Positions 11,487 to 50,864 are shown, numbered from the stretch's first letter. The stretch is 64,000 nucleotides of DNA from Candidatus Latescibacterota bacterium (GCA_965116885.1 OZ220741.1:1184001-1248000), one strand, 5' to 3'. A program made the numbers and translations. Notes: generated from the sequence alone by a model not told the origin.

Positions 11487-11608
11487 TAAGTGTTCATTTT
11501 CGGACACTACTGTATCAAAATCGGACACTTTCTAAACTGCTAATTTCAAGCGATTTTTCATAACTTATTGTTATTTCATCATTTAAGTCTTTTGGCACGA
11601 TTATTGCA
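11487..11608 (+). promoter_or_regulatory. Sigma54 promoter cassette copy 1 (UAS 11487-11530, IHF-like 11559, -24/-12 at 11593-11608)
   Basis: 44-bp TAAGTGTTCATTTTCGGACACTACTGTATCAAAATCGGACACTT; TGGCACG-ATTA-TTGCA. Confidence 0.85.
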
Positions 11609-11715
11609 GTAAAATCGGGACAAAGAACACGCACCGCAAAGAGGCGTCGCCTAAAATTGTGTAGATTGGGGTATCCTCGCAGATCCTACAGCCGTAAAAT
11701 CCTCAGGAGGAAATC

Positions 11716-13140
11716 ATGATTTCCATCAGCCCGATTTTTCGAAAGAACAGTATTTTTGTTTGTCTGCTTATACTCTTCTCACTCTCTGTCCATTCCACAC
11801 TCTTCAGCCTTTCCAAGAACGCCCAGGATTCCTCTGTTGCGCGATTTGACTCAGCTAATATGGATGAAGTTGTGATCCCCCTGGAGCGTGTACCTTTAAG
11901 CTCACAAGCATTATCGAGATTCAGGTCATCATCAATTGACTTTCACGATCACGATTGGATAAGTCGAAAACCGCTCGAGGAGGGTCTGCGAGGATTTCCA
12001 CCGGGAATGACCATAGAATTCTATGGTGTATTCGAGTTGAGTGCCCTACAGTTGTGCATTCTTTATTATCAAGAAGAGACCGATCGAAAACTCTGGGAAC
12101 CGTATGACTTAGGAGTACCTGTAGATAGCAAAGTATCCTTTGTGAATGGCCGGGATCGGAATGGAAATGCTGTTTTCCTTTTTGATACCAACAACAATGA
12201 AGACTTCTCCGATGAACATGCGATATATCCAGAGAACTTCGGTACAGTATTTCGTCTGCTGAGCTACATTCTACCCTGGAGACTTACTTATGGGCAGAAG
12301 GCAAATGCCACCGTTGAATTTGAATATAACGATGGTAGAATCGCCAAAACCCAAAAGGTGGGCGTGGAGGTTCATAGATATACGCAATATGTGAAAAAGC
12401 AGAACGATCCAACCTTCCCAAAATTCAGGGGAAGCGTGACTGAATACAGAAAAGGACGAGTGAAAATAGATGGTCAATTATACGACCTGGCGATCTACAA
12501 CAAAGGACGTTTCGCGACCTACTCTACCAAAATTTATAACAGAATACTATGGGATCTCAATCACGATGGCATATTCGGGAATGAACGCGAATCAGCGGAA
12601 TATTACGACGCCGACAAACCCTTTAATATCGGTGGTACCACATTTGAAGTTAAAAGCATCTCAGCCTCTGGTGATGAAATTATCCTCAGAAAATCAGATG
12701 TCTCCGTCCCAACAAAGGCTGAGATCAAACGAGGTTCTGTGGCACCGGATTTTGCAGTTACCGATATAAATGGAAAGAATCTTCAACTTTCAAATTTCAG
12801 GGGTAAATACGTTTTGTTGGACTTCTGGTACACCGGGTGCGGGCCATGTATCAAAGATACCCCCAGATTGAAAGCACTATCTGAAAAATTCGACCGGGAT
12901 AATTTCGAGATTATCGGCGTTAGTGCCGATATTAGAAGAGACAAAGTCGAGAATTATGTGGAGAAGTCTCACATTGGATGGCCCCAAATCCTGGACACTA
13001 TAGACAACAATAACAAGGTGTCAAAAATGTATAACATTGGAGGCCATCCGCACTATGTCCTGATTGACCGGGAAGGGAAGGTTATGATGACGAATCGTTC
13101 TTTTCGAGTCACCCTCACTCTCATCTCTCCACTCCTTTAA
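11716..13140 (+). CDS. Exported TlpA/redoxin-family thiol-disulfide oxidoreductase with a large N-terminal domain
   Basis: Hydrophobic N-terminus; C-terminal APDF..GKYVLLDFWYTGCGPC..LIDREG; AGGAGG RBS. Confidence 0.85.
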   Translation: MISISPIFRKNSIFVCLLILFSLSVHSTLFSLSKNAQDSSVARFDSANMDEVVIPLERVPLSSQALSRFRSSSIDFHDHDWISRKPLEEGLRGFPPGMTIEFYGVFELSALQLCILYYQEETDRKLWEPYDLGVPVDSKVSFVNGRDRNGNAVFLFDTNNNEDFSDEHAIYPENFGTVFRLLSYILPWRLTYGQKANATVEFEYNDGRIAKTQKVGVEVHRYTQYVKKQNDPTFPKFRGSVTEYRKGRVKIDGQLYDLAIYNKGRFATYSTKIYNRILWDLNHDGIFGNERESAEYYDADKPFNIGGTTFEVKSISASGDEIILRKSDVSVPTKAEIKRGSVAPDFAVTDINGKNLQLSNFRGKYVLLDFWYTGCGPCIKDTPRLKALSEKFDRDNFEIIGVSADIRRDKVENYVEKSHIGWPQILDTIDNNNKVSKMYNIGGHPHYVLIDREGKVMMTNRSFRVTLTLISPLL

Positions 13141-13184
13141 GACAAGCTTCGTCATGACTGCCTGAGACAGCCAGAGAGAATAAA

Positions 13185-15641
13185 ATGCTCCGCAACTATC
13201 TGACAGTAGCATACCGAAATCTCGTCCGTTACAAAGTGTATTCTGCGATCAATATCACCGGCCTGGCAATCGGCATTGCGTTTTGCATCTTGACATTCCT
13301 GTACATACATCACGAGTGGACCTATGATGCGTTTCACAAGAATGCCGACCAAATTTATCGGGTATATACCGAATTCCGTGGACCAGATAACAAATTTTAT
13401 CGCACGCCTACGGTCCCAACCGCTTTGCGCAATGAATTAGTCCAAACTGTAACAGGCGTGGACCAGACTGTGCGATTGGTTGCCGGACGAGGAGACGATC
13501 CCGATGATCAAGAGATACAGGTTACGTACGGAAATCAGATCTTTAAGTTGCCTTTTCTGATCGTAGATCCCGAATTCTTAGACATGTTTTCGTTTCCTCT
13601 TCGCTCTGGCGATTCGGAAATTGCCCTCAAACATCCGCAATCTGTTGTATTGAGTGCTGAAACAGCAAAGAAAATTTTCGGAAATGAAAATCCAATCGGA
13701 AAACAACTGACACTGCGATCTCTATGGAGCCACGAACGCGCTGACTTCACAGTAACCGGCGTTGCCGAACCCATACCCGACAACTCATCGCTTCAGTTTG
13801 ATATGTTGCTACCATATCAGCATCTATGGTTCTTGCTTTACGAGGAAGCAGATGATTGGAACCTCTTTTCCAGATGTGGTACTTACGTCCAACTAAGTGA
13901 AAATACAAAATCCACAGATATAGAACCGGCGATGCACGCGATTGTAAAAGCGCATATGCTGCGACCAGAGATCTCAGCGGCCAACTTACAGTTGCGACTT
14001 CAGCCGCTGACAAATCTGCACCATCGAATAGATCTTATAGACTCCACTTACCGCAATATGAAGGCACCCCGGGATCCAATGAACGGGTATGGACTGATCT
14101 GTCTTTCGTTGTTGGTTCTGGTCATGGCTTCCATCAATTTTGTCAACCTTGCGGTGGGTCGGTTGGTCACCCGAACAAAAGAAGTGGGCATTCGCAAAGT
14201 TGTAGGCGCGGTGCGCCCTCAACTGATTCGGCAATTCTTAAGCGAGTCGATATTACTGAGCCTTGTGGCCGTAGTTTTAGGTCTGTCCCTTGCAGAACTG
14301 GTGCTACCGTTTTTCAATGAATTTATGCACCAGAACCTGTCCTTCGAAAATATTTTTACCTGGCCTACTCTTGTCTTTTTGATCGCTCTGGTCGCAGTCG
14401 TCGGTCTCCTGATTGGCAGCTATCCCGCATTTATGATCTCCGGGTTTAATCCGGTTCGCATTCTCACCGGGCGGTTTAAGCTGAGCCATCGCAATCTGTT
14501 TGGTCGCGGACTCGTCTTCGGACAGCTTGCCGTGTCGAGTGCTTTGATTACCTGCACGCTGATCATGGTTTATCAACTTCAATTTGTAAAAGAAAAAGAT
14601 CTTGGTTTTAACAAGGAATTTGTCATTGACATTAACACAGACAGTCTTCACGATTTTAGCGGGCAGCACGATTTGCTCAAGAACTATTATTTGCAACATC
14701 ACAAGGTGGTTGGAGGCACGACAGTGGGAAGACCACTGTTGGGTTGGCAAAGTAGATACGAAGGGACAGGAGAACAGGAGCAATCTCTGTGGGTAAGCCG
14801 TTTCTATGTGGATTACGATTTTGTAAAAACGCTCGAAATGAAGGTGCTATCGGGACGAGATTTTAACTCTAATGTGAATGATCAAGCACAGGGCAACATT
14901 CTCGTAAATGAAGAACTGGTCAAACAGATGGGATGGGACGACCCGATTGGACAGACCATCACATTTGAGGGCAGAGGAGGACGCTCCTTGAGAGAGTCAA
15001 AAGGGGTTACCCGGGTCATTGGCGTGGTGCAGGATTTCTATTTAATGCCGCTCCAGCAAAACGTTCAACCCGCGATGCTTTTACTGAGTCCTATAGGAAA
15101 TTCAAGAAATTTCTTAGTGCGAATCAAACCTGGCGATGTTGCCGAAACTTTGAAATACCTGGAAACAGGATGGAAAGAAATCGCGCCCGCTGGCGAGCCA
15201 TTTTACTTCACGTTTGTGGACGAGGATATTGAGAATTATTACCGGAACTTTTTAAGTTGGAGCAGAATCGTGGGCTATGCAACGATTCTGGCTGTTTTTA
15301 TCGCCTGTCTGGGTGCATTTGGGCTAACGGCATTGGCCGTGGCAAGGCGAACCAAAGAAATAGGCATTCGAAAAATTATGGGCGCTTCGGTTTTAAATAT
15401 CGTATCGCTGTTATCGCGTGAATTTGTAATACTGGTTATAGTCGCAAATCTATGCGCCTGGCCCCTGACTTATCTAATAATGATCTGGTGGTTACAGAGT
15501 TTTGCCTACCGCATTGGACTGACAGCCGGGGTATTTGCACTCGGCGCCTTGCTGACCCTATTGGTCGTAATCGGAACAGTGAGCCTACAAGCCGTGAAAG
15601 CAGCAAAAATGAATCCCGTGGAAGCGTTGCGGTATGAGTAA
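13185..15641 (+). CDS. MacB/FtsX-type double-domain ABC permease #1 (type D)
   Basis: RTKEVGIRKVVGA and RTKEIGIRKIMGA FtsX motifs, two periplasmic domains, NPVEALRYE end, no NBD. Confidence 0.95.
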   Translation: MLRNYLTVAYRNLVRYKVYSAINITGLAIGIAFCILTFLYIHHEWTYDAFHKNADQIYRVYTEFRGPDNKFYRTPTVPTALRNELVQTVTGVDQTVRLVAGRGDDPDDQEIQVTYGNQIFKLPFLIVDPEFLDMFSFPLRSGDSEIALKHPQSVVLSAETAKKIFGNENPIGKQLTLRSLWSHERADFTVTGVAEPIPDNSSLQFDMLLPYQHLWFLLYEEADDWNLFSRCGTYVQLSENTKSTDIEPAMHAIVKAHMLRPEISAANLQLRLQPLTNLHHRIDLIDSTYRNMKAPRDPMNGYGLICLSLLVLVMASINFVNLAVGRLVTRTKEVGIRKVVGAVRPQLIRQFLSESILLSLVAVVLGLSLAELVLPFFNEFMHQNLSFENIFTWPTLVFLIALVAVVGLLIGSYPAFMISGFNPVRILTGRFKLSHRNLFGRGLVFGQLAVSSALITCTLIMVYQLQFVKEKDLGFNKEFVIDINTDSLHDFSGQHDLLKNYYLQHHKVVGGTTVGRPLLGWQSRYEGTGEQEQSLWVSRFYVDYDFVKTLEMKVLSGRDFNSNVNDQAQGNILVNEELVKQMGWDDPIGQTITFEGRGGRSLRESKGVTRVIGVVQDFYLMPLQQNVQPAMLLLSPIGNSRNFLVRIKPGDVAETLKYLETGWKEIAPAGEPFYFTFVDEDIENYYRNFLSWSRIVGYATILAVFIACLGAFGLTALAVARRTKEIGIRKIMGASVLNIVSLLSREFVILVIVANLCAWPLTYLIMIWWLQSFAYRIGLTAGVFALGALLTLLVVIGTVSLQAVKAAKMNPVEALRYE

Positions 15642-15688
15642 GCTACAAGGTCGCCCGAATTCTCTCATTCTTTATGCAAGGAAATAAA

Positions 15689-18055
15689 ATGTTCCGCAAC
15701 TCGAATCTAACCGTAGCATACCGAAATCTTGTGCGCTACAAAGTGTATTCTGCGATCAACATTACTGGACTGGCAATCGGCATTGCGTTTTGCATCTTGA
15801 CCTTCTTGTATGTGCGACACGAATGGTCCTTTGACGCATTCCACGAAAAAGCAGATCGAATTTATCGCGTTTACAATAGAGGAGAAGTGGGAGAAGGCGG
15901 CGATGCCTCGGCTGCTATGCCGGGTCCTCTCGGTCCAAAGTTGGCAGAAGCATTCCCCACACAAATGCAACATGTCGTGAGAATTAACACCTCTTCTCGC
16001 ACACTCCAATACGGCGACCATGCATTTCAAGAGCGCGTAATTTACGTCGATCCGGGTTTCTGGGACATCTTTTCATTTCCCCTGATAAAAGGCGACCCCG
16101 CAACAGCACTGAATAGCAAAGACGCCATCATCATATCAGAAACATCCGCTCAAAAGTTCTTCGGCAACACCGACCCAATGGGGAAATCTTTCTCTTTCAC
16201 CCGAAACTCAAAAATCCATCAAGCTCTAATCACGGGCATAGCGAAAGACATCCCCGAAACATCCAGCATTCAATTCGACTGCATCCAGTCCTATGGGAAT
16301 GTCGAAGACGCGCTCAACTCGTGGAATTACACAGGCAACACCAGCACTTACGTCTTGCTCCACGATCAGATCCGCGCCGAAGACATAGAAAAATTACTTC
16401 CGCGTTTTATAAACTGGTCGTGGCCCATCACGGGGGAAAACCAGGAACTGAAATTGCAGCCCCTTGCCGATGTGCATTTCAGTCCAAATATCCGCGCACC
16501 CGAACCCGCCACTGACCCGGCATACAGCTACATCCTGTTGTGCATCACAGCCCTGGTACTCTTTGTCGCATGCGTGAACTTTATGACCCTCGCACTGGGA
16601 CGGTCAGCCTCTCGAGCGCGGGAAATCGGCATCCGCAAAGTCGTTGGCGCACACAAGCCCCAGGTCATCGTGCAATTCCTCACAGAATCCGTGCTCTTAA
16701 GCCTCGTAGCATTTGTAATCGGACTCGCACTATCAGAACTTTTAATGCCATTGTTCAACAACCTCATGGCGCAAAAACTATCCATAGTTGCACACCTGGA
16801 TGGTCCGGCATTTGCCTCGCTAATGGGTCTAACTCTAATTGTCGGCCTCCTCGCAGGGACCTATCCAGCCTTTGTCCTGTCCGGCTTTATGCCAATTCAC
16901 GTACTCAAAGGCAGATTGAAAATTGTCAGCGCGGGATTATTCAGCCAATTTCTCGTGGTCTTCCAGATCGCGATGTCTGCGGTCCTCGTCATCAGTGCCC
17001 TCATCATGACCTCTCAACTCGACTATTTGCGGACCAAACCCCTGGGATTTGACAGCGAACATCTGATAGCCGTCAGTCGCCTCAGCAAACTGCGAGGCCT
17101 GGGACCAAAAGGCATTGAAACCTATCGAGACGCCCTCTTATCCCATCACGCAATTCTCGGTGTAACCCAGATATACCACATGATGCGCAATGGATACCAG
17201 TCGCGCGGGGCTGTGGTACATGACGGAACAACCTTAAAAGGCGTGGAGATATTCTTTGTCGATTACGACTTTGTACCAACGCTCGACATCAAATTGATCG
17301 AAGGCCGAAATTATTCACGAGAACTTGCAACAGATCCCACCGCGTCTGTAATCATCAACCAAACCCTGGCCAAACAACTGGGACCGGGACCACCCCTCGG
17401 AAAAACACTGAAATTCTTTGATGATATGACAGTAATCGGCGTGGTAAACGATTTTCATTTTCGCTCTCTCCATCACAAAATTGGCCCCGCATTCCTGAAA
17501 TGCAATCCAGAACATCAATTTAGCCGATTGCTGGTTCGGGTGCGTGCCAACGATATCCCCGGCACACTGTCATTTATGAAAGCGCAATGGGAAGCCATAA
17601 CACAGTCCTCTGGATTCCGCTATTCGTTTCTCGACGAAGGCATCGATCGCCAATACCGAACCGAAGAGCGGTGGCATCGCATGATCGGATACGGAACCCT
17701 GTTTGCCATTTTTATCGCGTGCTTGGGCGCATTTGGATTGACAGCACTCGCCGTGACCCGGCGCACCAAAGAAATCGGCATTCGCAAAATATTGGGCGCC
17801 AGCGTCACAAACGTGGTGCGCTTACTATCGCGTGAATTCGTTCTGTTGGTCGGCATAGCAAATGTACTCGCCTGGCCAGTCGCCTATTGGGCAATGAGCA
17901 AATGGCTATCGGACTTCGCGTATCGAATTGAACTGGGCATCGGAGCATTCGCGCTAGGCGGTGTACTGACACTCTTAGTCGTAATCGGAACAGTGAGCCT
18001 GCAAGCCGTGAAAGCGGCAAAAATGAACCCCGTGGAGGCATTGCGATATGAATAA
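15689..18055 (+). CDS. MacB/FtsX-type double-domain ABC permease #2 (type D ends)
   Basis: Same architecture; termini near-identical to #1; start at ATG 15689 after AAGGA. Confidence 0.95.
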   Translation: MFRNSNLTVAYRNLVRYKVYSAINITGLAIGIAFCILTFLYVRHEWSFDAFHEKADRIYRVYNRGEVGEGGDASAAMPGPLGPKLAEAFPTQMQHVVRINTSSRTLQYGDHAFQERVIYVDPGFWDIFSFPLIKGDPATALNSKDAIIISETSAQKFFGNTDPMGKSFSFTRNSKIHQALITGIAKDIPETSSIQFDCIQSYGNVEDALNSWNYTGNTSTYVLLHDQIRAEDIEKLLPRFINWSWPITGENQELKLQPLADVHFSPNIRAPEPATDPAYSYILLCITALVLFVACVNFMTLALGRSASRAREIGIRKVVGAHKPQVIVQFLTESVLLSLVAFVIGLALSELLMPLFNNLMAQKLSIVAHLDGPAFASLMGLTLIVGLLAGTYPAFVLSGFMPIHVLKGRLKIVSAGLFSQFLVVFQIAMSAVLVISALIMTSQLDYLRTKPLGFDSEHLIAVSRLSKLRGLGPKGIETYRDALLSHHAILGVTQIYHMMRNGYQSRGAVVHDGTTLKGVEIFFVDYDFVPTLDIKLIEGRNYSRELATDPTASVIINQTLAKQLGPGPPLGKTLKFFDDMTVIGVVNDFHFRSLHHKIGPAFLKCNPEHQFSRLLVRVRANDIPGTLSFMKAQWEAITQSSGFRYSFLDEGIDRQYRTEERWHRMIGYGTLFAIFIACLGAFGLTALAVTRRTKEIGIRKILGASVTNVVRLLSREFVLLVGIANVLAWPVAYWAMSKWLSDFAYRIELGIGAFALGGVLTLLVVIGTVSLQAVKAAKMNPVEALRYE

Positions 18056-18629
18056 ACGATCAGAAATAGAAAACGACGTACAATTGATCCACATGATCAA
18101 AGCCGGCGACAAAAGCGCGTTTGGCAAACTCTACCATCTGCACCAGAATCGCGTACGCGCCATTGTCGGGCGATATGTGCAGGACCGCGACGAAACCGAA
18201 GACCTGATGCAGGTGGTATTCATGAAAGTCTTCCAGAGCCTGCGCCATTTTCGCGGCGAATCGGCATTCACAACCTATCTGACGCGCATTGCCATCAACG
18301 TCGGGCGGTCACACCTTCGGTCCCGGCTATCCCGAAAAAACGGCATGGAAACAGCAGCGCGAGACATGCCCGAACCCATTACCCTGACAACGCCAGAAGA
18401 TAGCATCATAAAAAAAGAACGCCATCAACTCTTAACACAGGGCCTGCGCACATTGCCTAAAGTGCAACAACGCGCAATGTGGCTTCGCTACATAAAAGAA
18501 CTGTCCTACCGCGAAATCGTATGGGAAATGCAAGCACCCCTCGGCTCCGTGAAAATCTGGCTCCACCGCGGGCGCCATCAGCTAAAACGCGCGCTGGAAA
18601 AACAAGAGGTCGGAGGTTGGGCGGGCTAA
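18048..18629 (+). CDS. ECF sigma factor embedded in the permease array
   Basis: EDLMQVVFMKVFQSLRHFRGESAFTTYLTRIAIN; SYREI..MQAPLGSVKIWLHRGR; overlaps the stop of permease #2. Confidence 0.9.
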   Translation: MNKRSEIENDVQLIHMIKAGDKSAFGKLYHLHQNRVRAIVGRYVQDRDETEDLMQVVFMKVFQSLRHFRGESAFTTYLTRIAINVGRSHLRSRLSRKNGMETAARDMPEPITLTTPEDSIIKKERHQLLTQGLRTLPKVQQRAMWLRYIKELSYREIVWEMQAPLGSVKIWLHRGRHQLKRALEKQEVGGWAG

Positions 18630-18657
18630 CTGCTGGGACGTCACAGGAGATAAGACC

Positions 18658-21159
18658 ATGATCAAAAATTATCTAACCGTTGCGATCCGCAATCTGATGC
18701 GGCACAAATTGTACACCTCCATCAATGTACTGGGACTCGCCATCGGGCTGGCATGTGGCATTTTGATCCTGTTGTACATCCAACAGGAATTTGCAGTAAA
18801 TCGCGCCCACACACTGGGCGACCGCATTTACAAAGTGATTCGAGAAGAGCGCAGCACACAAACAACTTACAGCAGCGGCACATCAGGCGCACTCGGTCCC
18901 GTATTAAAAGAAACATTTCCCGAAGTAGAAACAACTGTGCGTATCTGGCGATGGACTGTATCTGTACAATACGGCGAGCGCAAGGATCGATATCTCCTTG
19001 CGCTGGTAGATGACAACTTCCTGGACGTATTCGATTTTCCCCTCATAAAAGGCGACTTAGAAACCGCGTTTCGCACACCCTACTCTGTGGTCATTACCGA
19101 CGACATGGCGCAACACTTGTTTGGCGATATTGATCCGATGGGGCAAACACTTTCAATCGACAGTCGCAGTTTCCCAGGCGAGTACACAGTTACCGGCATC
19201 GTAAAAGCACCACACCTCTCATCTGGCTTTTATTTTCAAATACTCTCAACCACAATACCCTCCGTAGAAGAAACGCAAGAGGTGTGGACAATGTGGCGCC
19301 CCACGCAATCGTGGCGTCCGGTAAACACCTATGTGCTATTAAAAGTGGGACAAAACGCAGAAAGCCTACAAGCGAAAATGCAGTCGTTGATCGTGCAGTA
19401 TCTGGGGGATGAAGTCGCGGCTGAAAATAAGTCTCGTTGGCCTCATTATCCCCTTCAGCCATTGATCAAACAGCATATAGGGAATGACGTTGCCTCAAAA
19501 AACACCTACCATCTACAACCTCTGCATCGCGTGTACCTGTATGGCGAATCCGATTTTAACCCAACTGCCGACAGCCCCGTGCAACACATTTACATGCTGG
19601 CAGCTATTGGGCTGATCCTCGTGGTCATTGCCTGCGTGAACTTTACAAATCTGGCAACTGCACGCGCTGTCACCCGCAAGCGCGAAGTCGGCGTGCGAAA
19701 AGTCGTTGGCGCGCATCGTCCACAACTGATGGTCCAATTTTTGAGCGAATCCCTGCTTTTAACCTGTTCCGCCCTGCTGATTGCCCTCGCACTGGTCGAG
19801 CTATGCCTGCCCTTATTCAACCAATTCGTGCGCGGCGATCTACACCTCAACGCGGCTACAGTAATAATAGGTACACCGGCAGTACTGGCACTCACAGTGT
19901 TGGTCGGACTGCTGGCGGGATGGTATCCGGCGTTTTTCCTCTCATCCTTTCGCCCGGTAACAGCATTAAAAAGCAGTGCGTCTTCCTCCCCGGGTTCCAC
20001 AGGACTGAAGAAAGGACTCGTGGTTTTTCAGTTTGGCATGTCCATCTTACTGGTGATCTGTACCCTGGTGGTTTATCAGCAACTGAAATTTATAGAAACC
20101 AAAGACATGGGCTTTGCACGCGATCACATTGTGAGTTTACCCATTTTTGTCCCTGACTTTTCCGGAGAGCCAAACCCACAAAAACGCCTTTCAGCACGCC
20201 ACCAAATGGTCAAACAGGTCTTTCTCGAACACCCCAATATCCTCAGCGCATCGGCTCTGCGATACGAAATCACGGGATACAGCGGACGACTGCGACTCGC
20301 CTGGCCCGATGGGGACCGAACAAAAGAACAGACATTTCGCATAAACGAAGTTGATGATTCATTCTTTGAAACATTTGAAATCCCCGTGCTTCGCGGTCGT
20401 GCCTTTTCAGCCGATGTTGCCAGCGATACATCTCAGGCAATTATCTTAAACGAAACAGCCGTGCGACTCCTCGGCTGGGAGGACGACCCGATTGGCAAAC
20501 AGATTGTGTTACCAGCGTATGACAACCTATCCTTGACAGTAATAGGCGTCGTAAAAGATTACCACAATTTGACACTAAGAGAAGAAATCGCCCCCATGGG
20601 ATTTTTGGCCCGCTGGAAGATGTTTTATTCCCTGGCTTTACGCATCCGACCGGAAAACACCGCGCACACCCTGTCCTTTCTCGAAACCCAGTGGAAACAC
20701 TTTGTGCCAGACGCGCCCTTTGAGTATCACTTCCTGGACGAACTCATAGATTGGATCTATTTCAACGAACAACTCACCGGCAAAATGCTCGGGATATTCT
20801 CATTGCTGGCAATTTTTGTCGCGTGCCTGGGACTGTTCGGACTGGCCGCATTCATGGTTCAATCTCGCACCAAAGAAATTGGCGTGCGGAAAGTACTGGG
20901 CGCATCCACACCGCATCTGGTCATGCTGCTCTCCCGCGAATTTATATTCCTCGTTCTACTCGCCAATCTCATCGCCTGGCCAATCGCCTACTATCTCATG
21001 CGCGACTGGCTCTCCGGGTTTGCCTATCAGACAGATTTAAATGTCTTGCCATTTGTCGCAAGCGCGATAATGGCCCTGATCATCGCCTTTGGCACCGTGA
21101 GCATGCAAGCCATTCGCGCAGCGCGATCCAATCCAATTGATGCCTTGAGATATGAATGA
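18658..21159 (+). CDS. MacB/FtsX-type ABC permease #3 (type A)
   Basis: Double FtsX architecture; close paralogue of 31706-34135. Confidence 0.95.
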   Translation: MIKNYLTVAIRNLMRHKLYTSINVLGLAIGLACGILILLYIQQEFAVNRAHTLGDRIYKVIREERSTQTTYSSGTSGALGPVLKETFPEVETTVRIWRWTVSVQYGERKDRYLLALVDDNFLDVFDFPLIKGDLETAFRTPYSVVITDDMAQHLFGDIDPMGQTLSIDSRSFPGEYTVTGIVKAPHLSSGFYFQILSTTIPSVEETQEVWTMWRPTQSWRPVNTYVLLKVGQNAESLQAKMQSLIVQYLGDEVAAENKSRWPHYPLQPLIKQHIGNDVASKNTYHLQPLHRVYLYGESDFNPTADSPVQHIYMLAAIGLILVVIACVNFTNLATARAVTRKREVGVRKVVGAHRPQLMVQFLSESLLLTCSALLIALALVELCLPLFNQFVRGDLHLNAATVIIGTPAVLALTVLVGLLAGWYPAFFLSSFRPVTALKSSASSSPGSTGLKKGLVVFQFGMSILLVICTLVVYQQLKFIETKDMGFARDHIVSLPIFVPDFSGEPNPQKRLSARHQMVKQVFLEHPNILSASALRYEITGYSGRLRLAWPDGDRTKEQTFRINEVDDSFFETFEIPVLRGRAFSADVASDTSQAIILNETAVRLLGWEDDPIGKQIVLPAYDNLSLTVIGVVKDYHNLTLREEIAPMGFLARWKMFYSLALRIRPENTAHTLSFLETQWKHFVPDAPFEYHFLDELIDWIYFNEQLTGKMLGIFSLLAIFVACLGLFGLAAFMVQSRTKEIGVRKVLGASTPHLVMLLSREFIFLVLLANLIAWPIAYYLMRDWLSGFAYQTDLNVLPFVASAIMALIIAFGTVSMQAIRAARSNPIDALRYE

Positions 21160-21188
21160 TCAGTTCCCGTCCTGCAAAGGAGAAACCC

Positions 21189-24338: not shown

Positions 24339-24460
24339 TAAGTGTTCATTTTCGGACACTACTGTATCAAAATCGGACACTTTTTGAACGGCGCTCATGG
24401 CTCAAATTTTCATAACTCCCTGTAAAACATAGAAAAGAAGTTTTTGGCACAAAAATTGCT
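24339..24460 (+). promoter_or_regulatory. Sigma54 promoter cassette copy 2 (UAS 24339-24382, -24/-12 at 24445-24460)
   Basis: Identical 44-mer; TGGCACA-AAAA-TTGCT. Confidence 0.85.
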
Positions 24461-26895: not shown

Positions 26896-26917
26896 GGAAC
26901 AATGACAGGAGCTTCTC

Positions 26918-37821: not shown

Positions 37822-37840
37822 CTTTTTAAGAGTGCTATTC

Positions 37841-38236
37841 ATGATCAAAAATTATCTAACCGTTGCGATTCGCAACATCGCCAGAAACAAAACGTTCTCT
37901 GCGATCAACATCCTCGGACTCGCCTCCTTCACCGCACAACAGCGCATCAAAGAAATCGGCATCCGAAAAGTATTGGGCGCATCCGTTTCCAATCTCGTAC
38001 TCATGTTGTCAAAAGAGTTTGCCCTGCTTGTCGGCATTGCCAACCTCATTGCCTGGCCAATCGCCTATTACGCGATGAACAGGTGGCTACAGGACTTCGC
38101 CTATCGCATTGATCTAGGTATATGGGCGTTTGTTCTGAGCGGTTTTCTGGCGTTGTTCATCGCCTTGACCACGGTAAGTTATCAGGCGTGGAAAGTCGCT
38201 CGCACCAATCCCGTGGATGCCCTGCGATATGAGTGA
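37841..38236 (+). pseudogene. In-frame internally deleted type C permease (131 aa)
   Basis: MIKNY...AINILGLA joined directly to SFTAQQRIKEIG...NPVDALRYE; 660 codons shorter than #6. Confidence 0.85.
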
Positions 38237-43646: not shown

Positions 43647-43653
43647 GCACAAT

Positions 43654-44709
43654 ATGTCCGAGATCAAAAACCACAGCAAAGCGTATTGGACCTGTCAGAT
43701 TTTGGGATGGGGAATTTACGGCCTGCTCAACACATTTTTTTTATCCGCTTTTCAGACCATTACCGCACAAAATCTGGGCATCACCGTTTTTGGATCTATC
43801 CAACTTTTATTGTGGACACACCTGCTCAGAACCATATTCAAAAAACGGCATTGGGTCACACTGCCTTTGTGGAAACTCTTTATCAGAGTATTGATAGCCG
43901 ACCTTGTCATTGCGATTATCAGCCAGAGCATTCAAATCTTTGGTTATCTTTATATAGACGAGACGCTTACGATTGAACAATTCCGTTGGAAATTGTATGG
44001 CATCCAAATACTCAACACGAACTTTATCCTCTGGATATGGTCGCTGTTATATGTCGTGTTCCACATGTTTGACATAACCAAACGCGGAGAACGCGAAAAA
44101 TGGGAATTACAAACAGCGGTTAAAGAAGCCGAATTGATGGCACTAAAAGCCCAGATAAATCCTCATTTTCTTTTTAACAGCCTCAACAATATCCGCGCTC
44201 TGGTCATTGAAAATCCTGCACGAGCACGCGACATGATCTCAAAACTGTCTGAGCTATTCCGATACGCGCTGCAGGTCAGCAGCACCAGAAGTGTGTCGTT
44301 AAAAGAGGAATTGGCAATTGTGAAAAACTATCTCCAACTCGAAGCCGTCCAGTTGGAAGACAGGTTGCGTTATCGGTTTGACATCGCGCCGGAAACACAA
44401 CAAGTCGAAATTCCCCCGATGACCATACAAACCCTGGTCGAAAATGCCATTCGACACGGCATTGCACAGCATCCCGATGGTGGCGAAATCTCAATTCGGA
44501 CAACCCTTCAGCAAACTGTTATGGAGGTCTGCATTGTAAACACCGGCCAAATGAAAAACAACGCAACACATGACGGCATTGGCCTGCAAAACACCAGAGA
44601 ACGTCTGCGCCTTTTATTTGGAGAAACCGCGCAATTAACGGTTGAAAATACGTCTCAAAATCAGGTCTGTGCAAAATTTCAAGTGCCGCTCACTGGACAA
44701 CAAATATGA
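43654..44709 (+). CDS. LytS/YehU family membrane sensor histidine kinase
   Basis: About 4 TM segments; LKAQINPHFLFNSLN; QTLVENAIRHG; GIGLQN. Confidence 0.95.
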   Translation: MSEIKNHSKAYWTCQILGWGIYGLLNTFFLSAFQTITAQNLGITVFGSIQLLLWTHLLRTIFKKRHWVTLPLWKLFIRVLIADLVIAIISQSIQIFGYLYIDETLTIEQFRWKLYGIQILNTNFILWIWSLLYVVFHMFDITKRGEREKWELQTAVKEAELMALKAQINPHFLFNSLNNIRALVIENPARARDMISKLSELFRYALQVSSTRSVSLKEELAIVKNYLQLEAVQLEDRLRYRFDIAPETQQVEIPPMTIQTLVENAIRHGIAQHPDGGEISIRTTLQQTVMEVCIVNTGQMKNNATHDGIGLQNTRERLRLLFGETAQLTVENTSQNQVCAKFQVPLTGQQI

Positions 44710-45419
44710 ATGCATTGATTGTCGATGATTCCCGACTTGCCCGTCAGGAATTAAAACACTTACTCAAAGCTTTTGAGGCCATCACTGTCGCAGGTGAAGC
44801 CGCAAATGCAGATGCAGCACGGCAACAACTCAAAAGACTATCTGTCGATGTGATCTTCCTCGACATTCAGATGCCCGGACAAGACGGTTTTGAATTGCTT
44901 GAAACCCTCGACCAGGTACCACAGGTGATCTTTACAACCGCCTACGACGAATATGCCATTCGGGCGTTTGAAGTAAACGCGCTCGACTACTTGCTAAAAC
45001 CCATTCAGCCTGAACGCCTTGCAAGCGCGATTGAAAAATTACAAGCCCAAACGCTTTCTCCCGATGAAACTGTTGCACCGGCATTGACAGATTCGAGTCG
45101 CGTCTTTGTAAAAGACGGGGACCAGTGCTGGTTTATCACACTCTCAGACATTCAATTGTTCGAAGTCTCTGGCAACTACACGCGGGTCTATTTTCAAAAA
45201 TTCAAACCCCTTATTCCGCGCACCCTCAACCACCTTGAAGAGCGTTTGGACAAACGCATATTTTTCCGTGTCAATCGCCAACAAATTATCAATTTACAGT
45301 ATATTGAAAAAATTGAGCCCTATTTTCAAGGCAGCCTGAAAGTATTTTTGAAAGGGGGCTATGAAATAGAAATTTCCCGACGTCAGACACAAAAATTCCG
45401 AGAGCGCCTGAGTCTTTAA
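44706..45419 (+). CDS. LytTR family response regulator
   Basis: IVDD, FLDIQMP, TTAYDEYA, DYLLKP; LytTR FFRVNRQQIIN..ISRR. Confidence 0.95.
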   Translation: MNALIVDDSRLARQELKHLLKAFEAITVAGEAANADAARQQLKRLSVDVIFLDIQMPGQDGFELLETLDQVPQVIFTTAYDEYAIRAFEVNALDYLLKPIQPERLASAIEKLQAQTLSPDETVAPALTDSSRVFVKDGDQCWFITLSDIQLFEVSGNYTRVYFQKFKPLIPRTLNHLEERLDKRIFFRVNRQQIINLQYIEKIEPYFQGSLKVFLKGGYEIEISRRQTQKFRERLSL

Positions 45420-45467
45420 TCTGTGCGATCCAGCCATTGTGAAATAATGGTTCTACAGCTAATATAG

Positions 45468-45503
45468 CAGGCACATTGAAATTAAAACAATGTGCCTGTT
45501 TTT
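45468..45503 (+). terminator. Intrinsic terminator directly upstream of cassette copy 3
   Basis: CAGGCACATTG-N9-CAATGTGCCTG-TTTTT. Confidence 0.75.
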
Positions 45504-45507
45504 ATTA

Positions 45508-45629
45508 TAAGTGTTCATTTTCGGACACTACTGTATCAAAATCGGACACTTATTGAACGACGTTCATGACACAAATTTCCATAACTACTTGTAAAACATA
45601 GAGAAGATGTTTTTGGCACGGGAATTGCT
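45508..45629 (+). promoter_or_regulatory. Sigma54 promoter cassette copy 3 (UAS 45508-45551, -24/-12 at 45614-45629)
   Basis: Identical 44-mer; TGGCACG-GGAA-TTGCT. Confidence 0.85.
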
Positions 45630-45737: not shown

Positions 45738-48218
45738 ATGTTTCGCGGTTATCTCATAGCCACCATTCGCACCTTGCTAAAAAACAGGGGCTTGACAGCG
45801 ATTAATATCCTGGGTCTGGCAATTGGAATGGCATCTGTAATTTTGATCATCCTCTACATTCAGTACGAACTGAGCTATGACCGACACCATGCCCATGCGA
45901 ACCGCATCTACGGCGTTTTTCGCGTCATGTCAATGGAAAATACCACATCGGTCAATCCGCGTGCATCTGGCGCACTGGCACCGGCATTAAAGCGCGATTT
46001 CCCCGAAGTACAGGAAGCCATCCGCGTACAACGGCTCGACGCTTGGGTGCAAACCCAAACCCGCTTTTTTCAGCAAGACATGTGTGTGGCAGACCCAGAG
46101 ATTTTCAATGTGTTCACCATTCCATTTATAAGCGGCGATCCGAACACGGCATTGACGCAGTCGGGCTCAATGGTGCTAACAGAGTCAATGGCGCGCAAAT
46201 TCTTTCAGAACCAGAATCCAATAGGAAAAGCCCTGCAAGTAGATCACCAGGAACTGAGCGGCACCTACTTTGTAACGGGTATTGTGCGCGACTTTCCACC
46301 CAATTCGACCTTTTATTTTGATTGCCTGACCGCCACGCCAAAGGGCGCAATGGCGGACATGTGGGCGATATGGCAGCCCACGGGTGTTTTTCGTCCCTTT
46401 TTCACATATATTCTATTGCCCGAAGGATACGACCACCGCGCACTACAGCAAAAACTGCCCGATTTGATAACGCGATACATGGGTGATGAGGTGCGCCAAA
46501 CAACCCGGTACATCTTGCAACCCCTCACCCGCAGGCACCTTTATAGCACTGCGGATTTGGGACTTACGACTGCCGAATATGGCGATATCAAGCAGGTATA
46601 TGCTTTTGGGCTGGTGGCGGGCTTTATTCTCTTATTAGCCTGTGTCAATTTTATGAATCTCTCAACAGCGCGCTCATCCACCAGAGCACGCGAGGTGGGA
46701 TTGCGAAAAGTGGTGGGCGCATCTCGCCGGCAATTGATCGGACAATTTTTGGGCGAATCCGTGCTCGTGTCACTGGCTGCAATGGTGGTGGCTGTCGCAC
46801 TATTTGAACTGGTCCTGCCGTGGTTTAACAGCTTTATCCAGCGGGATCTGACATTGTACAGCACTGAAAATCTGTGGTGGCTGATCGGGTTGATCGGATT
46901 TGGACTGGGCGTAGGTGTACTCGCGGGAAGTTATCCCGCATTTGTACTCTCATCCTTCCTGCCCACGCAGGTGATGAAGGGGGATTGGATACCCGGATCG
47001 AAACACATTGGGCTGCGAAAAGCACTCGTGGTCTTCCAATTTGCAATTTCAATTGCTTTTATCACAGGCACTGTTGTCGTACAAGAGCAACTGGCGTATA
47101 TCCGAAACAAAGACCTCGGATTCGACAAAGAACTCGTCGTCGGCATACCGCTTTTCATCTATTCTCGGCAACTACATCACGGGAATCGAGACGATCTGAG
47201 ATGGCGTATTCCCACGGTAAAAGAGGTGTTCATGGAACACCCAAATATCTTAAAAGCCACAGCCACGCGTTTTCATCAAGGTGGATATCATACGACAGAT
47301 ACTTTTCGAGCTGAAGGCAGTGACGCAGATTGGCAGATGGGCCTGTTTGATATCGACCGCGATTTTCTGGACTTCTTCAACATCGAACTCGTGGCAGGCC
47401 GTCTGGCACCAGAACCACCAAGGCCGCCAGGCAAAATAATAACTCTTGAAGAGTGGCAAGAATACAACAAAAAACTGCAAGCATATCAGGAAAAAGGCCG
47501 GCCATTTATCTTAAATGAAACAGCCGTAAGGCATCTCGGATGGGATGATCCAATAGGCAAACGTTTTAAAGAAAAAAAAGAGCCAGAGGGATATGTGGTA
47601 GGCGTAATAAAAGATTTTCATGCTCAGACATTGCACAATGCCATTCGACCCGTTGTATTCAGAGTTTTTACGGGAGGTGCCAAACATCTCTACCTCAAAC
47701 TGGGCACACAGAACATACCGGAAACACTCGCTTTTATAGAAAAAACATGGCATGAATTTTTACCTCAAATCCCCTTCACTTTCTGGTTTTTGAATGATGA
47801 CCTGACACATGTGCGTTATGAAAATGAAATCCGCACGGGAAATGCACTAACGGTGTTTTCCGGACTGACAATCTTCGTAGCATGCCTGGGACTACTCGGC
47901 CTTATCTCGTTTCGCGCAGAACAAAAAACAAAAGAAATTGGCATTCGGAAAGTCCTGGGCGCATCAATATTCAGTATCTTCAATCTGTTATCCAAAGAAT
48001 TTGTCAAGCTCGTAATCATCGCCTGTGTAATCGCCAGTCCAATAGCCTATCTGTTTGCAGGCAGATGGTTGCAGGACTTCGCCTATCGCATCGACCTTCA
48101 CCTTATGTATTTTCTCATAGGCGGTGTCCTCGCGCTCTTACTTGCACTTGCAACCATGACCTATCAAGCCCTCAAAGCCGCACGGACAAATCCAGTAGAT
48201 GCTTTGCGGACGGAGTAA
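45738..48218 (+). CDS. MacB/FtsX-type ABC permease #9
   Basis: Double FtsX architecture; GGAGG RBS; ends NPVDALRTE. Confidence 0.95.
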   Translation: MFRGYLIATIRTLLKNRGLTAINILGLAIGMASVILIILYIQYELSYDRHHAHANRIYGVFRVMSMENTTSVNPRASGALAPALKRDFPEVQEAIRVQRLDAWVQTQTRFFQQDMCVADPEIFNVFTIPFISGDPNTALTQSGSMVLTESMARKFFQNQNPIGKALQVDHQELSGTYFVTGIVRDFPPNSTFYFDCLTATPKGAMADMWAIWQPTGVFRPFFTYILLPEGYDHRALQQKLPDLITRYMGDEVRQTTRYILQPLTRRHLYSTADLGLTTAEYGDIKQVYAFGLVAGFILLLACVNFMNLSTARSSTRAREVGLRKVVGASRRQLIGQFLGESVLVSLAAMVVAVALFELVLPWFNSFIQRDLTLYSTENLWWLIGLIGFGLGVGVLAGSYPAFVLSSFLPTQVMKGDWIPGSKHIGLRKALVVFQFAISIAFITGTVVVQEQLAYIRNKDLGFDKELVVGIPLFIYSRQLHHGNRDDLRWRIPTVKEVFMEHPNILKATATRFHQGGYHTTDTFRAEGSDADWQMGLFDIDRDFLDFFNIELVAGRLAPEPPRPPGKIITLEEWQEYNKKLQAYQEKGRPFILNETAVRHLGWDDPIGKRFKEKKEPEGYVVGVIKDFHAQTLHNAIRPVVFRVFTGGAKHLYLKLGTQNIPETLAFIEKTWHEFLPQIPFTFWFLNDDLTHVRYENEIRTGNALTVFSGLTIFVACLGLLGLISFRAEQKTKEIGIRKVLGASIFSIFNLLSKEFVKLVIIACVIASPIAYLFAGRWLQDFAYRIDLHLMYFLIGGVLALLLALATMTYQALKAARTNPVDALRTE

Positions 48219-48281
48219 AAACAGAAGCTGTGGGGCAGCGTCTCATGCTTTTACATATTCACAATAGATAATGAGGAAAAC

Positions 48282-50522
48282 ATGAAAGTGGGGTCAGTGA
48301 TTTATACAGGTTTTATACTCCTGTTTTGCATATTTAGTGCTGGCTCATCCAGAGGAGAAGCCACAATAGACACACTGTTTCAAAATGCAATGGAACAAGT
48401 CGGACAGGTGAGTCCTGAAGAAAGCATCAAGGCGTTCGAGGCGATTATTTCCAAAGACAGAAATTATGCGCCTGCATACAACGAATTGGCCAAACTGCAT
48501 TTGCTGGATTATAGCGTAAATGGCCGACAACGGGCGAGACAGATAATTCAGAAAGCAATCGAACAGGATCACAAGAATCCAACCTATCAACTGACACGAG
48601 CAAAAATTATGTGGTCGCAGGGCTTTTGGGAGGAGGCGTTAAATCAGTATAAGAAGGTTCATCCGAAAAATACAGAAGCCCTTGATGGTATTGGTATGGC
48701 TCTGGTGTACGAATATCTGTCGATGCGGGACGAAGTCAAAGCCAGAGACAGGGACTTTAGCGGCTTTGCTGCAAAGGCTAACAAAGAAGCCGAGCAAGTA
48801 TTGCTCAAAAGCATCCAATTGAACCCGGAGAATCAGACACCTTATTATTTGCTGGGGATGCTCTATTTTGAAAGCCAGCGTTTTGCAGACTTTCAAGCCT
48901 TGATGAAAAACCTGAAAATGCACTATCCAACAGATAAGAATGTGCTGTTGTTCTGCGGTCTTGCTGAATATGAGGTGGGCGAATTTAACAGCGCACATCA
49001 ATTCTACGCACAGGCACTGGAGCAAATGAGCTTGGGTGAACGCGAGTTGATGGAGTCCATTGATTTGCTTGTGCCACAAGAAGATCCGGATATTCCCGTC
49101 TTGCAATTGTCGCAGGATAAAATTAGCCAGTCTGACGAACTGCTGAGCCGCAACAATTTTTGGAAAAGCCAGGACCCACTCTATTTGTCAGAATTTAACG
49201 AAAGAAAAATGGAACATTTTGGACGCATGGCGTATGCGAATTTGCGGTTCAGACAATTTTCAGATGATATGGAAGGCTGGCAGACAGATATGGGCAAAAC
49301 CTATATCAAATTTGGAAAATTTCGATATCGAAAATCGAGTTCAGTGAGGCGGGTGGAAACCTGGTTTTACGAACAGTTCAAAATTTTTTTTACAGGAAAT
49401 GGCGCTGATCGGTGGCGTTTTGGCGGTGGATTCGAGATCGCTGGTAAACGCTTAAGCCCATCCAGAGCGGCAAGTGCATTTGATGATACCAATGCCGTAG
49501 CTAATTTATTCAGAAGAGAGCCAGGACGAAATGTATATCCCACCAGATTTGAGGAGCGTTCAGACCTTATTTTTTTTAAGACTGAACAGCGTTATGTTGA
49601 TCCGTATCTAAATCGAAAATACACCTTACCCTATCTGGTCGCCGTCTTTCAAGAACGAGACAGCGTGCGGGTTGAACTCAGTTATATGATTCCAAAAGAC
49701 CGCTTAAAAGAGAACCCTGAAACCGGCAAGGTGAGCTTCTGGGATGGCGTGTTCTTATTTGATGAGCATTGGGATGAGATATATAACTATCGCAAATCCG
49801 TGAACTTCGCATTGCCACCACCTGTACCTGCCGAAAACGCAGCCGCAAGACATCGGAACAATCACTTACTGATCTCGCGCAATCTGTATGCGTCCCAAGG
49901 TACTTATCATTTCTCTGTTGAATTATTGGATCAAACATCGGGTGCAATTGGTATAGCACGCAATGAAGAGCAATTTTTGTATAACCAGGAGACCTTTCAT
50001 TTGAGCGATCTATTGGTGGCGAGTAATATTCAAACAAGAAATGCGTTTCCAGAACACCGTGATGACGTGATCATCACACCCAATCCCGTTCGCACCTTTT
50101 CACGATCAGAATCGATCTTCATTTATCTGGAACTCTATGATTTGCAACGCGATAAGTTCGGAAGAACACACTATCAAATCTCCTATACCATTAGCAAGCC
50201 AGAGGTGGATACAGTATCTCCTGCGTTATTTATGTCTCAAAAATTACTCGATACTCTGGGAAAAACAGAGATTGATATAAGTGTCAGGAGCCAGGTGCAT
50301 CATACAGAGGCGCAAGATTTGAATATCGAACGCTCACAGGACAGTGATGTGATCCGCACAGTAACAGCCAATTACGAAGGCAATCGAGAAGATGACTTCA
50401 CCTACTTGCAGATCAATGTGAACCAGATACCCGAAGGGATTTATCAATTAACCGTATTCGCGAAAGACGAACAGACCGAGCAGACGGATATGCAACACAT
50501 CTATTTCCGTATCGTAGAATAA
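48282..50522 (+). CDS. Exported TPR + GWxTD domain protein
   Basis: Signal-like N-terminus, TPR-like repeats, FWKSQDP..NE..EH..R..YAN..F..GWQTDMGKTYIKFG. Confidence 0.85.
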   Translation: MKVGSVIYTGFILLFCIFSAGSSRGEATIDTLFQNAMEQVGQVSPEESIKAFEAIISKDRNYAPAYNELAKLHLLDYSVNGRQRARQIIQKAIEQDHKNPTYQLTRAKIMWSQGFWEEALNQYKKVHPKNTEALDGIGMALVYEYLSMRDEVKARDRDFSGFAAKANKEAEQVLLKSIQLNPENQTPYYLLGMLYFESQRFADFQALMKNLKMHYPTDKNVLLFCGLAEYEVGEFNSAHQFYAQALEQMSLGERELMESIDLLVPQEDPDIPVLQLSQDKISQSDELLSRNNFWKSQDPLYLSEFNERKMEHFGRMAYANLRFRQFSDDMEGWQTDMGKTYIKFGKFRYRKSSSVRRVETWFYEQFKIFFTGNGADRWRFGGGFEIAGKRLSPSRAASAFDDTNAVANLFRREPGRNVYPTRFEERSDLIFFKTEQRYVDPYLNRKYTLPYLVAVFQERDSVRVELSYMIPKDRLKENPETGKVSFWDGVFLFDEHWDEIYNYRKSVNFALPPPVPAENAAARHRNNHLLISRNLYASQGTYHFSVELLDQTSGAIGIARNEEQFLYNQETFHLSDLLVASNIQTRNAFPEHRDDVIITPNPVRTFSRSESIFIYLELYDLQRDKFGRTHYQISYTISKPEVDTVSPALFMSQKLLDTLGKTEIDISVRSQVHHTEAQDLNIERSQDSDVIRTVTANYEGNREDDFTYLQINVNQIPEGIYQLTVFAKDEQTEQTDMQHIYFRIVE

Positions 50523-50701
50523 ATATTGGATACCAATTCATGGTTAGCTATATTTTTTAAATTGAAGACTTGGGTGGTATTAAAATTTACGATCCTGTAC
50601 AAGAAATAGCCGTTGAACACTGACCGAAGTAGAATAAACCCCTTGCACACAATAAAGCGTTGTACTCATTGTGATAAATAATAGTTCTACAGATGATACA
50701 G

Positions 50702-50738
50702 CAGGCATATTGAAATCAAAACAATGTGCCTGTTTTTT
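50702..50738 (+). terminator. Intrinsic terminator directly upstream of cassette copy 4
   Basis: CAGGCATATTG-N9-CAATGTGCCTG-TTTTTT. Confidence 0.7.
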
Positions 50739-50742
50739 ATTA

Positions 50743-50864
50743 TAAGTGTTCATTTTCGGACACTACTGTATCAAAATCGGACACTTATGGAACGGCGTTC
50801 ATGACACAAATTTTCATAACTATTTGTAAAACATAGAAAAGAGTCTTTTGGCACGGAAATTGCT
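50743..50864 (+). promoter_or_regulatory. Sigma54 promoter cassette copy 4 (UAS 50743-50786, -24/-12 at 50849-50864)
   Basis: Identical 44-mer; TGGCACG-GAAA-TTGCT. Confidence 0.85.

Follow-up and report, generated by a model that had tools for sequence, protein, structure and literature searches.

A 64,000-nt stretch of DNA from a Candidatus Latescibacterota bacterium (GCA_965116885.1, OZ220741.1:1184001-1248000; the whole stretch is called the window below) carries one 44-bp sequence four times, each time ahead of a run of genes. What does this repeated element do, and which protein reads it? An initial annotation had taken every copy as the enhancer of a complete sigma-54 enhancer-promoter cassette. 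The present analysis agrees with high confidence that the cassette appears to combine a sigma-54 promoter with a paired-dyad enhancer, given rpoN, 12 promoter-bearing copies, conservation in two genera, helical phasing, non-random targets and a co-occurring bacterial enhancer-binding protein (bEBP). The full explanation, in which each cassette would be a sigma-54-dependent promoter with its own enhancer, served by a response-regulator bEBP through looping, is very likely. The argument draws on sequence architecture, conservation, spacing, gene content, co-occurrence and adjacency.

Architecture of the four cassettes

The 44-mer lies on the + strand only, with 0 mismatches at all four positions; no further match was present in the window at up to 3 mismatches, and 100 shuffles gave 0 matches. 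It holds two tandem dyads. In dyad 1, TGT (positions 5-7) pairs with ACA (18-20) across N10; in dyad 2, TGT (25-27) pairs with ACA (39-41) across N11, and CGGACAC closes each of them (15-21 and 36-42). CATAACT starts at 11559, 24411, 45580 and 50815, which is +72 in 4/4 copies, and TGGCAC-N5-TTGC starts at exactly +106 in 4/4. The identical copies, their paired dyads and the invariant offsets had all been described in the initial annotation and are reproduced here. The resulting features are as follows.

11487..11530, + strand: enhancer (upstream activating sequence) copy 1, two tandem dyads; exact 44-mer, block conserved in 111 unique sites
11561..11570, + strand: central core copy 1, TAA-N4-TTG (minus strand CAA-N4-TTA, a core like that of integration host factor, IHF)
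11593..11607, + strand: putative sigma-54 -24/-12 promoter copy 1, TGGCAC-N5-TTGC; start predicted near 11619
24339..24382, + strand: enhancer copy 2, exact 44-mer
24413..24422, + strand: central core copy 2, degenerate (TAA-N4-CTG)
24445..24459, + strand: putative sigma-54 promoter copy 2; start predicted near 24471
45508..45551, + strand: enhancer copy 3, exact 44-mer
45582..45591, + strand: central core copy 3, TAA-N4-TTG
45614..45628, + strand: putative sigma-54 promoter copy 3; start predicted near 45640
50743..50786, + strand: enhancer copy 4, exact 44-mer
50817..50826, + strand: central core copy 4, TAA-N4-TTG
50849..50863, + strand: putative sigma-54 promoter copy 4; start predicted near 50875

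With 1 mismatch allowed, the promoter pattern alone is not enriched in the window (5 occurrences against 5.4 expected). The promoter signal lies in the exact match of all four copies at a single offset. Alignment of the four copies leaves three invariant blocks, namely the 44-mer, the CATAAC..TTGT region and TTTTGGCAC..ATTGC. The spacer of copy 1 had been called divergent, and its identity to copies 2-4 is indeed only 0.63-0.66, against 0.84-0.90 among copies 2-4. Copy 2 has TAA-N4-CTG as its central core in place of TAA-N4-TTG.

Distribution in the genome

The genome, a single 5.56-Mb contig of 51% G+C, contains one copy of rpoN, a 497-aa open frame with a single Sigma54_DBD match (203.8 bits). 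The tandem core GGACAC-N15-GGACAC is found at 12 sites. TGGCA[CT]-N5-TTGC lies at +105/+106 in 11/12 of these sites, and the twelfth has TGGCAC-N5-TCGC at +195. Each of the 12 sites faces an open reading frame (ORF), whose mechanically listed start lies 106-256 nt downstream. Apart from the permeases, first or later genes behind the cassettes encode two LRR proteins, TPR proteins, sulfatases and purple acid phosphatases; another cassette operon has an ankyrin protein behind an ABC ATPase, and one encodes a 1683-aa Pkinase-AAA_16-TPR-GAF-Sigma54_activat-HTH_8 protein. Perfect TGGCAY-N5-TTGC motifs number 87 in the genome, compared with about 21 estimated from uniform base composition. Sigma54_activat genes amount to about 25 full-length copies plus a truncated one.

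Across the genome and its relatives, the scan returned gene-facing copies with non-random targets and no indiscriminate scatter. Co-induction of four sub-operons of the permease array by one bEBP, as proposed earlier, survives in the sense of a shared regulon of permease operons, but the number has to be revised from four promoters to 12.

Conservation and spacing across the family

The family set comprised 31 genomes, namely the source genome (G000) and relatives in several genera. CGGACAC-N14-CGGACAC is present in 24 of them (G000, 20/20 others of its genus g1 and 3/3 of g3) and in 0/7 genomes of four other genera. It marks 174 family sites, of which one or more clearly arose by chance; the reversed control marks 23. 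A perfect promoter follows after a gap of 50-80 at 138/174 sites and at 0 in the control.

The spacing of these 138 promoters is quantised. Within an allowed range of 92-122 from the 44-mer start, TGGCA lies at 104 (3 sites), 105 (46), 106 (84) or 107 (1), which makes 134 sites, and at 115 (1), 116 (2) or 117 (1), which makes 4. No site has an offset of 92-103, 108-114 or 118-122. The enhancer-promoter distance varies by no more than one or two bases unless a whole helical turn is added, a pattern characteristic of an activator that has to face the polymerase.

Information content over 111 unique sites peaks at the 44-mer, at TTTTC-TAAC..TTGTAA and at TTTTGGCAC-N5-TTGC. The first ORF behind 99 sites in other genomes is FtsX/MacB_PCD in 60 cases, an ABC ATPase in 9, an extracytoplasmic function (ECF) sigma factor in 5 and HlyD in 4. 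Genomes with just one or two sites place them before an ECF sigma-HlyD-ABC-FtsX operon or a Sel1-repeat operon. Some natural variants turn dyad 1 into a perfect palindrome, for example GTGTCCG-N4-CGGACAC, which stands at site 3147814 of the genome itself as well as in one g3 genome, or GTGTCCGC-TG-GCGGACAC in the record L159.

Nearly all site-bearing records are titled Candidatus Latescibacterota. Among the rest, labels such as Poribacteria, Gemmatimonadetes and Rhodothermales occur. L135, L143, L150 and L158, filed under Poribacteria or 'uncultured bacterium', are 81-94% identical in nucleotides to the genome and on that ground may be mis-binned Latescibacterota; L104 and L159 reach only 66-68%. 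The second genus also shows two complete 44-mers in tandem, 122 or 356 bp apart (L281, G002:C317; L282, G004:C24), between the regulator gene and an ECF sigma gene, so that four dyads precede one promoter.

The element between enhancer and promoter

YAA-N4-TTG starts 31-32 nt before TGGCA in 73/91 sites; in 4 others the distance is 41-42 nt. Its N4 varies freely, and chance would give about 0.001 per fixed position. Read on the other strand it is CAA-N4-TTR, held at a fixed position in 77/91 sites and centred at about -53 from the predicted start. Because the distance from core to enhancer is unchanged in the four longer cases, the extra helical turn sits between core and promoter.

The IHF consensus is WATCAANNNNTTR, and CAA-N4-TTR forms its core. 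Four HU/IHF-family genes are present in the genome, and the best NCBIfam models of three of them are IHF alpha/beta. The proposal of an IHF site between enhancer and promoter therefore holds for the conserved core but not for the full WATCAA-N4-TTR consensus, which occurs in 1/91 sites; the flanking WAT is not kept. Two further details count against IHF: copy 2 has CTG, and the HU/IHF homologs score 60-92 bits, under the NCBIfam IHF cut-offs of 111-120. We regard action of an IHF-type protein at the central core as possible, leaning slightly against it.

A response regulator as candidate activator

The bEBP sets of three small site-bearing and three site-free genomes were compared with that of G000. 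Seven bEBP orthogroups are common to all compared site-bearing genomes. Four of the seven were set aside, being also found in site-free genera with a conserved helix-turn-helix (HTH). Also rejected were b821385 and b84162, whose g3 homologs are just 50-61% identical and which have similar homologs in the site-free g4, and b1450632, which has a giant-like HTH (see below) but no ortholog in the site-bearing G029. Judged by these comparisons, the only one among the three remaining orthogroups that fits the site distribution is a 460-aa response regulator encoded at genome 1422601-1423983, with Response_reg, Sigma54_activat (E 3e-64) and HTH_8 domains.

Orthologs of this regulator, 80-99% identical, occur in 24/24 site-bearing genomes (two are partial, one of them by a contig end) and, at E<=1e-105, in 0/7 site-free ones. 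In 3/3 g3 genomes the regulator gene is divergent from the enhancer and back to back with it, and the promoter of an ECF sigma gene follows at +105/+106. When the regulator was compared by tblastn with the 110 site loci, the more distant records L159, L100 and L132 showed this divergent arrangement as well, at 63-66% amino-acid identity; in one of these, which is G+C-rich, the first dyad is a perfect palindrome and the promoter lies exactly at +106. Altogether six genomes, from four lineages or more, have the regulator gene adjacent to a site and divergent from it; the G023 ortholog shares a gene cluster with a site and lies 11.5 kb downstream of it. G000 and g3 have an identical recognition helix, LGLTRSALYRRLEK. 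At the N-terminus of the partner histidine kinase, which has about 445 aa, two hydrophobic helices follow each other almost without a loop; the protein also has an H box and HATPase_c. We consider it probable that the 460-aa regulator, paired with this intramembrane-type kinase, is the activator at the 44-mer. A scan for TGT-N6-7-CGGACA near bEBP genes gave 81 hits, about chance level, and was uninformative.

The binding, looping, activator, signal and start sites of the resulting mechanism are predictions. RpoN-RNA polymerase would be held closed on TGGCAC-N5-TTGC, with transcription starting about 12 nt after the GC. The dyad centres are 20.5 bp apart, at about -120 and -100 from the predicted start, and therefore lie on the same helix face. 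Two dimers of a Fis-type HTH bEBP would bind the dyads and assemble an AAA+ ring, which would contact the polymerase through DNA looping. The TAA-N4-TTG element and phased A-tracts may aid the loop, via an IHF/HU-type protein, intrinsic curvature or both. The activator would be the 460-aa Response_reg-Sigma54_activat-HTH_8 protein and its partner the kinase; since the latter has two membrane helices and little outside loop, one membrane-level signal would switch 12 operons. These encode mostly MacB/FtsX-type exporter parts, along with ECF sigma, LRR/ankyrin/TPR proteins, sulfatases and one giant bEBP.

Several observations weigh against this account. As many as 36/174 sites have no perfect promoter in the scanned gap, and longer offsets of 170, 180, 195, 205 and 206 exist, some out of helical phase. 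One RNA-library contig holds the 44-mer of another copy, upstream of the predicted start; this is DNA carry-over or read-through. As for the activator, its L1 loop is GAFTDA or GAYTDA, never GAFTGA, throughout the orthogroup, and its Walker A motif reads GENGTGKD. A Desulfovibrio study counts GAFTDA among tolerated variants and assigns a regulon to such a protein (PMC4641369), and a Dickeya study leaves the effect of GAFTDA open (PMC10714721). In this genome and genus the regulator gene adjoins no site. Its co-occurrence with the sites is not independent evidence, because it follows two clades and hence taxonomy. The G026 ortholog aligns over residues 4-363 only, without the HTH, in a genome that keeps one intact site. 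Its frame (G026:C1:302022-303101) ends differently, through a frameshift or an assembly error.

Spacer classes and upstream hairpins

The 44-mers of the 12 genomic sites are 89-100% identical in nearly all pairs, with pairs involving site 3147814 at 75-82%. The first genes behind them are 18-40% identical or unrelated, except those of copies 2 and 4 at 73%. Copies 2, 3 and 4 and the sites 581138, 4854617 and 268458 have 77-90% of their spacer in common, and some share an upstream hairpin too. These six copies are alike over about 200 bp, which begin at the hairpin and end shortly after -12, and they precede permease, LRR protein and TPR protein genes; their similarity stops about 15-20 nt beyond the predicted start. 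Neither terminal repeats nor target duplications are visible around them. Copy 1 belongs to a class with a different spacer, itself conserved between species. Since such other spacer classes work and are conserved, the spacer shared by six copies reflects history (copying or gene conversion), and the three blocks reflect function. The suggestion that the cassette was copied as a unit fits copies 2, 3 and 4 and three more copies, but not copy 1.

Copies 3 and 4 have their own terminator-like hairpins directly upstream; the hairpin is weak at copy 2, and none is present at copy 1.

45466..45500, + strand: terminator-like hairpin and U-run directly upstream of copy 3; dG -19.2 kcal/mol, z -5.6
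50700..50734, + strand: terminator-like hairpin and U-run directly upstream of copy 4; dG -17.4 kcal/mol, z -4.9

The notion of promoters that restart transcription after interruptions is, to that extent, partly apt. Family-wide, 55/111 sites have a stable hairpin with a T-run that ends within 16 nt of the 44-mer. One copy carries a compensatory stem change (CAGGC..GCCTG to TAGGC..GCCTA) that keeps the pairing. A simple terminator scan missed the cassette hairpin because its loop is 9 nt.

Alternative explanations

Three giant bEBPs with fused Ser/Thr kinase domains could act at the 44-mer instead of, or along with, the response regulator. These Pkinase-AAA_16-TPR-GAF-Sigma54_activat-HTH_8 proteins are 1590-1683 aa long and 81-82% identical mutually, and their genes lie at 260703-265754 (L049:6303-11354:-), 77154-82148 and 1919801-1924573 (L206, L208). 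One of them is the second gene of a cassette-driven operon and would be autoregulated through site 268458. Their GAF-AAA+ part is most NifA-like, although its TIGR01817 score of 391.7 bits falls short of the 528.85 cut-off; the TGT-N10-ACA form of dyad 1 is that of NifA sites. Two features speak for the giants and against the regulator: canonical GAFTGA in 3/3 of them, and DNA-binding ends that are the genome's closest to those of the candidate (20-23 identical over 36-46). Giant-bearing genomes also have 6-13 sites, and giant-free ones 1-6. Set against this, with presence taken as at least 79% identity, there is no giant in eight site-bearing genomes (G020, G023, G026, G029, G030 and three of g3), where the best hits reach 38-50%. 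In other genomes of the genus, each of the sites listed is more than about 9 kb away from any giant, and the recognition helices differ between the three giants. A giant as general, conserved, autoregulated activator was rejected, being absent from those eight genomes and following a site only here, among the sites listed. On balance the giants are unlikely to be the activators, and they may be extra users of the enhancer. Most genomes of the genus have several giants, and some copies in relatives have internal stops or are in pieces.

The response regulator also competes with a reader from the window itself. LytTR sites consist of direct repeats, each about 9 bp long, that recur every 21 bp or so, and the LytTR regulator encoded upstream of copy 3 might bind the 44-mer as direct repeats of TCGGACACT, which recurs at 21 bp and so resembles a LytTR site in unit and period. 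The LytS/LytTR pair is the sole one in the genome, and at 93-95% identity it lies upstream of the copy-3 ortholog at 4 distinct loci in other species. Those are just 4 distinct loci of 110, however. Sigma-54 promoters moreover require an AAA+ activator, a domain that LytTR proteins lack, and site variants drift towards perfect palindromes rather than direct repeats, which points to a dimeric HTH reader. Binding by LytTR is accordingly very improbable. Even less credible is a MITE-like dispersed repeat (miniature inverted-repeat transposable element) that includes the 44-mer and owes its identity to recent spread, not function. The roughly 200 bp common to six genomic copies before unrelated genes would suit it; terminal inverted repeats and target duplications are not visible, and all genomic copies are gene-proximal and co-oriented. 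The dyads, the bipartite core and the -24/-12 element are precisely what remains fixed across spacer classes and genera, and orthologous positions of sites are retained between species.

Downstream operons and other loci

Each window cassette is followed by a co-directional gene run, made up mostly of proteins of about 800 aa with two MacB_PCD/FtsX modules each. The minority genes encode ECF sigma, a HlyD-type adaptor, ABC ATPases, ABC exporters, and redoxin-like and TPR/GWxTD proteins.

11716..23513, + strand: operon 1, with a redoxin-like protein, 2 FtsX/MacB_PCD permeases, ECF sigma and 2 further permeases
24544..38236, + strand: operon 2, with four FtsX/MacB_PCD permeases, two ABC exporter proteins and one FtsX fragment
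43597..45419, + strand: His_kinase (LytS-type) and LytTR response regulator, immediately upstream of copy 3
45738..50522, + strand: operon 3, with an FtsX/MacB_PCD permease and a TPR/GWxTD protein
50929..63998, continuing beyond the window end, + strand: operon 4, first part, with a permease, HlyD-type adaptor, ABC ATPase, permease and 110-aa ORF
within 50929..63998, + strand: operon 4, remainder, with an ABC ATPase, HD protein and two permeases

The first gene of operon 4 probably starts at ATG 50929 rather than at the mechanically listed TTG 50848. Operon 2 ends in a 151-aa FtsX-only fragment (window 37781-38236), probably a permease remnant, which is followed by a PIN_3 domain gene at window 38311-38742. 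An Rfam scan of the window gave no family match. Assembled metatranscriptome contigs, which do not show starts, ends or strand, cover parts of operons 3 and 4 (window 44000-58000) in four runs, with small shares (0.06-0.19); in run X1, 13/34 pieces are at least 99% alike.

Elsewhere in the genome, an IS605 OrfB/TnpB-like gene (OrfB_IS605 and Cas12f1-like TNB; L047:14586-15707:+, near 2026400) lies upstream of cassette 2025880. A RES-domain protein (L050:11024-11617:-, near 21000) is encoded in the operon behind cassette 23958, after the ABC ATPase and ankyrin protein. At about 82260-82405, beyond the 3' side of a giant bEBP gene, a perfect dyad, AGGTGCATCC-N4-GGATGCACCT, precedes a different sigma-54 promoter. 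The last gene of the operon driven by this promoter encodes a 345-aa bEBP; the stretch TTCTTAAATTTTATCTCTTTGTTTTTCAA is common to the promoter's spacer and to the +170-type promoters of G023 and G030.

Other Sigma54_activat proteins have unusual sensors. Nine proteins of about 1060-1073 aa are encoded at 4416839-4420054, 5508999-5512178, 5371205-5374426, 1099115-1102324 and five more places (L214, L217, L221, L222). The four that were Pfam-scanned fuse a Reg_prop/Y_Y_Y beta-propeller sensor, a type known from hybrid two-component systems, directly to Sigma54_activat and an HTH, and in several of these proteins GAFTSA or GSFTSA replaces GAFTGA. A 554-aa protein (643976-645640, L220) fuses a CRISPR-associated Cas_NE0113 (CARF-like) domain to Sigma54_activat.

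Comparison with described systems

NtrC-type enhancers such as that of glnAp2 serve a response-regulator bEBP from tandem dyads about 100-140 bp upstream. The cassettes would share with them the response-regulator bEBP, tandem dyads on one face, the -24/-12 promoter and activation by looping. They differ in the half-site (GTGTCCG / CGGACAC), in a 44-bp site that is near-invariant over 12 promoters and two genera, in the GAFTDA of the candidate activator and in their targets, which are exporter operons instead of nitrogen genes. The NifA upstream activating sequence is TGT-N10-ACA, with IHF between enhancer and promoter. Dyad 1 and the conserved CAA-N4-TTR core at about -53 recall this arrangement; unlike it, the cassettes have no nif context, an N11 second dyad and no match to the full IHF consensus, and their likely activator would be a phosphorylation-controlled response regulator rather than a GAF-domain protein of the NifA type.

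Bce modules of Firmicutes (BceRS-BceAB) use an OmpR-type regulator and ordinary promoters. A two-helix kinase with almost no outside loop, set over FtsX-family ABC permease genes, would be common to both systems. Here, in contrast, a sigma-54 bEBP would take the place of the OmpR-type regulator, and the permeases of about 800 aa, with two MacB_PCD/FtsX modules each, form arrays. The candidate's best NCBIfam matches are PrsR (TIGR02915, the PEP-CTERM-box regulator) and AtoC, at 377 and 367 bits. With curated cut-offs of 502.6 and 714, it belongs to neither family.

Predicted sigma-54 promoters upstream of genes for ABC-type 'antimicrobial peptide' FtsX-like permeases were reported from an in silico survey (PMC12316311, PLoS One 2025). 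That paper gives enrichment for gamma-Proteobacteria, Opitutia and Bacteroidia and does not contain the word Latescibacter; in the portions consulted, no enhancer or activator is named. Ankyrin, LRR, Sel1 and TPR proteins are listed in a study of Latescibacterota genomes from sponges (PMC12993501), in whose text a term search gave none of the words sigma, FtsX, MacB and permease. Supplements aside, no paper on sigma-54 regulation in Candidatus Latescibacterota was found.

Implications

The mechanism itself is textbook. The architecture is that of a standard sigma-54 system, and all that sets it apart is that the 44-bp operator is invariant, the natural phasing strict and the cassettes partly copied. 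What is new is the designation of a specific candidate two-component system as the switch of the cassettes.

A broader reading remains speculative and is on the doubtful side. The unit of about 200 bp (hairpin, enhancer, bending element, promoter) may be a portable module, repeatedly set before unrelated genes, through which one two-component system commands an envelope-export and host-interaction programme in symbionts, with the giants adding signals. If this were true, its targets would include LRR, ankyrin, TPR and Sel1 proteins, sulfatases and a giant bEBP.

The 138 natural promoters at 104-107 or 115-117 form a clean natural data set on sigma-54 enhancer phasing. A common switch of the MacB/FtsX permease arrays offers a practical route to what induces them. 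Together, the candidate kinase and regulator, the 44-bp operator, the fixed geometry of the loop and the targets, 12 operons here and up to 13 sites in a relative, would give the uncultured Candidatus Latescibacterota a fully specified and testable regulatory circuit.

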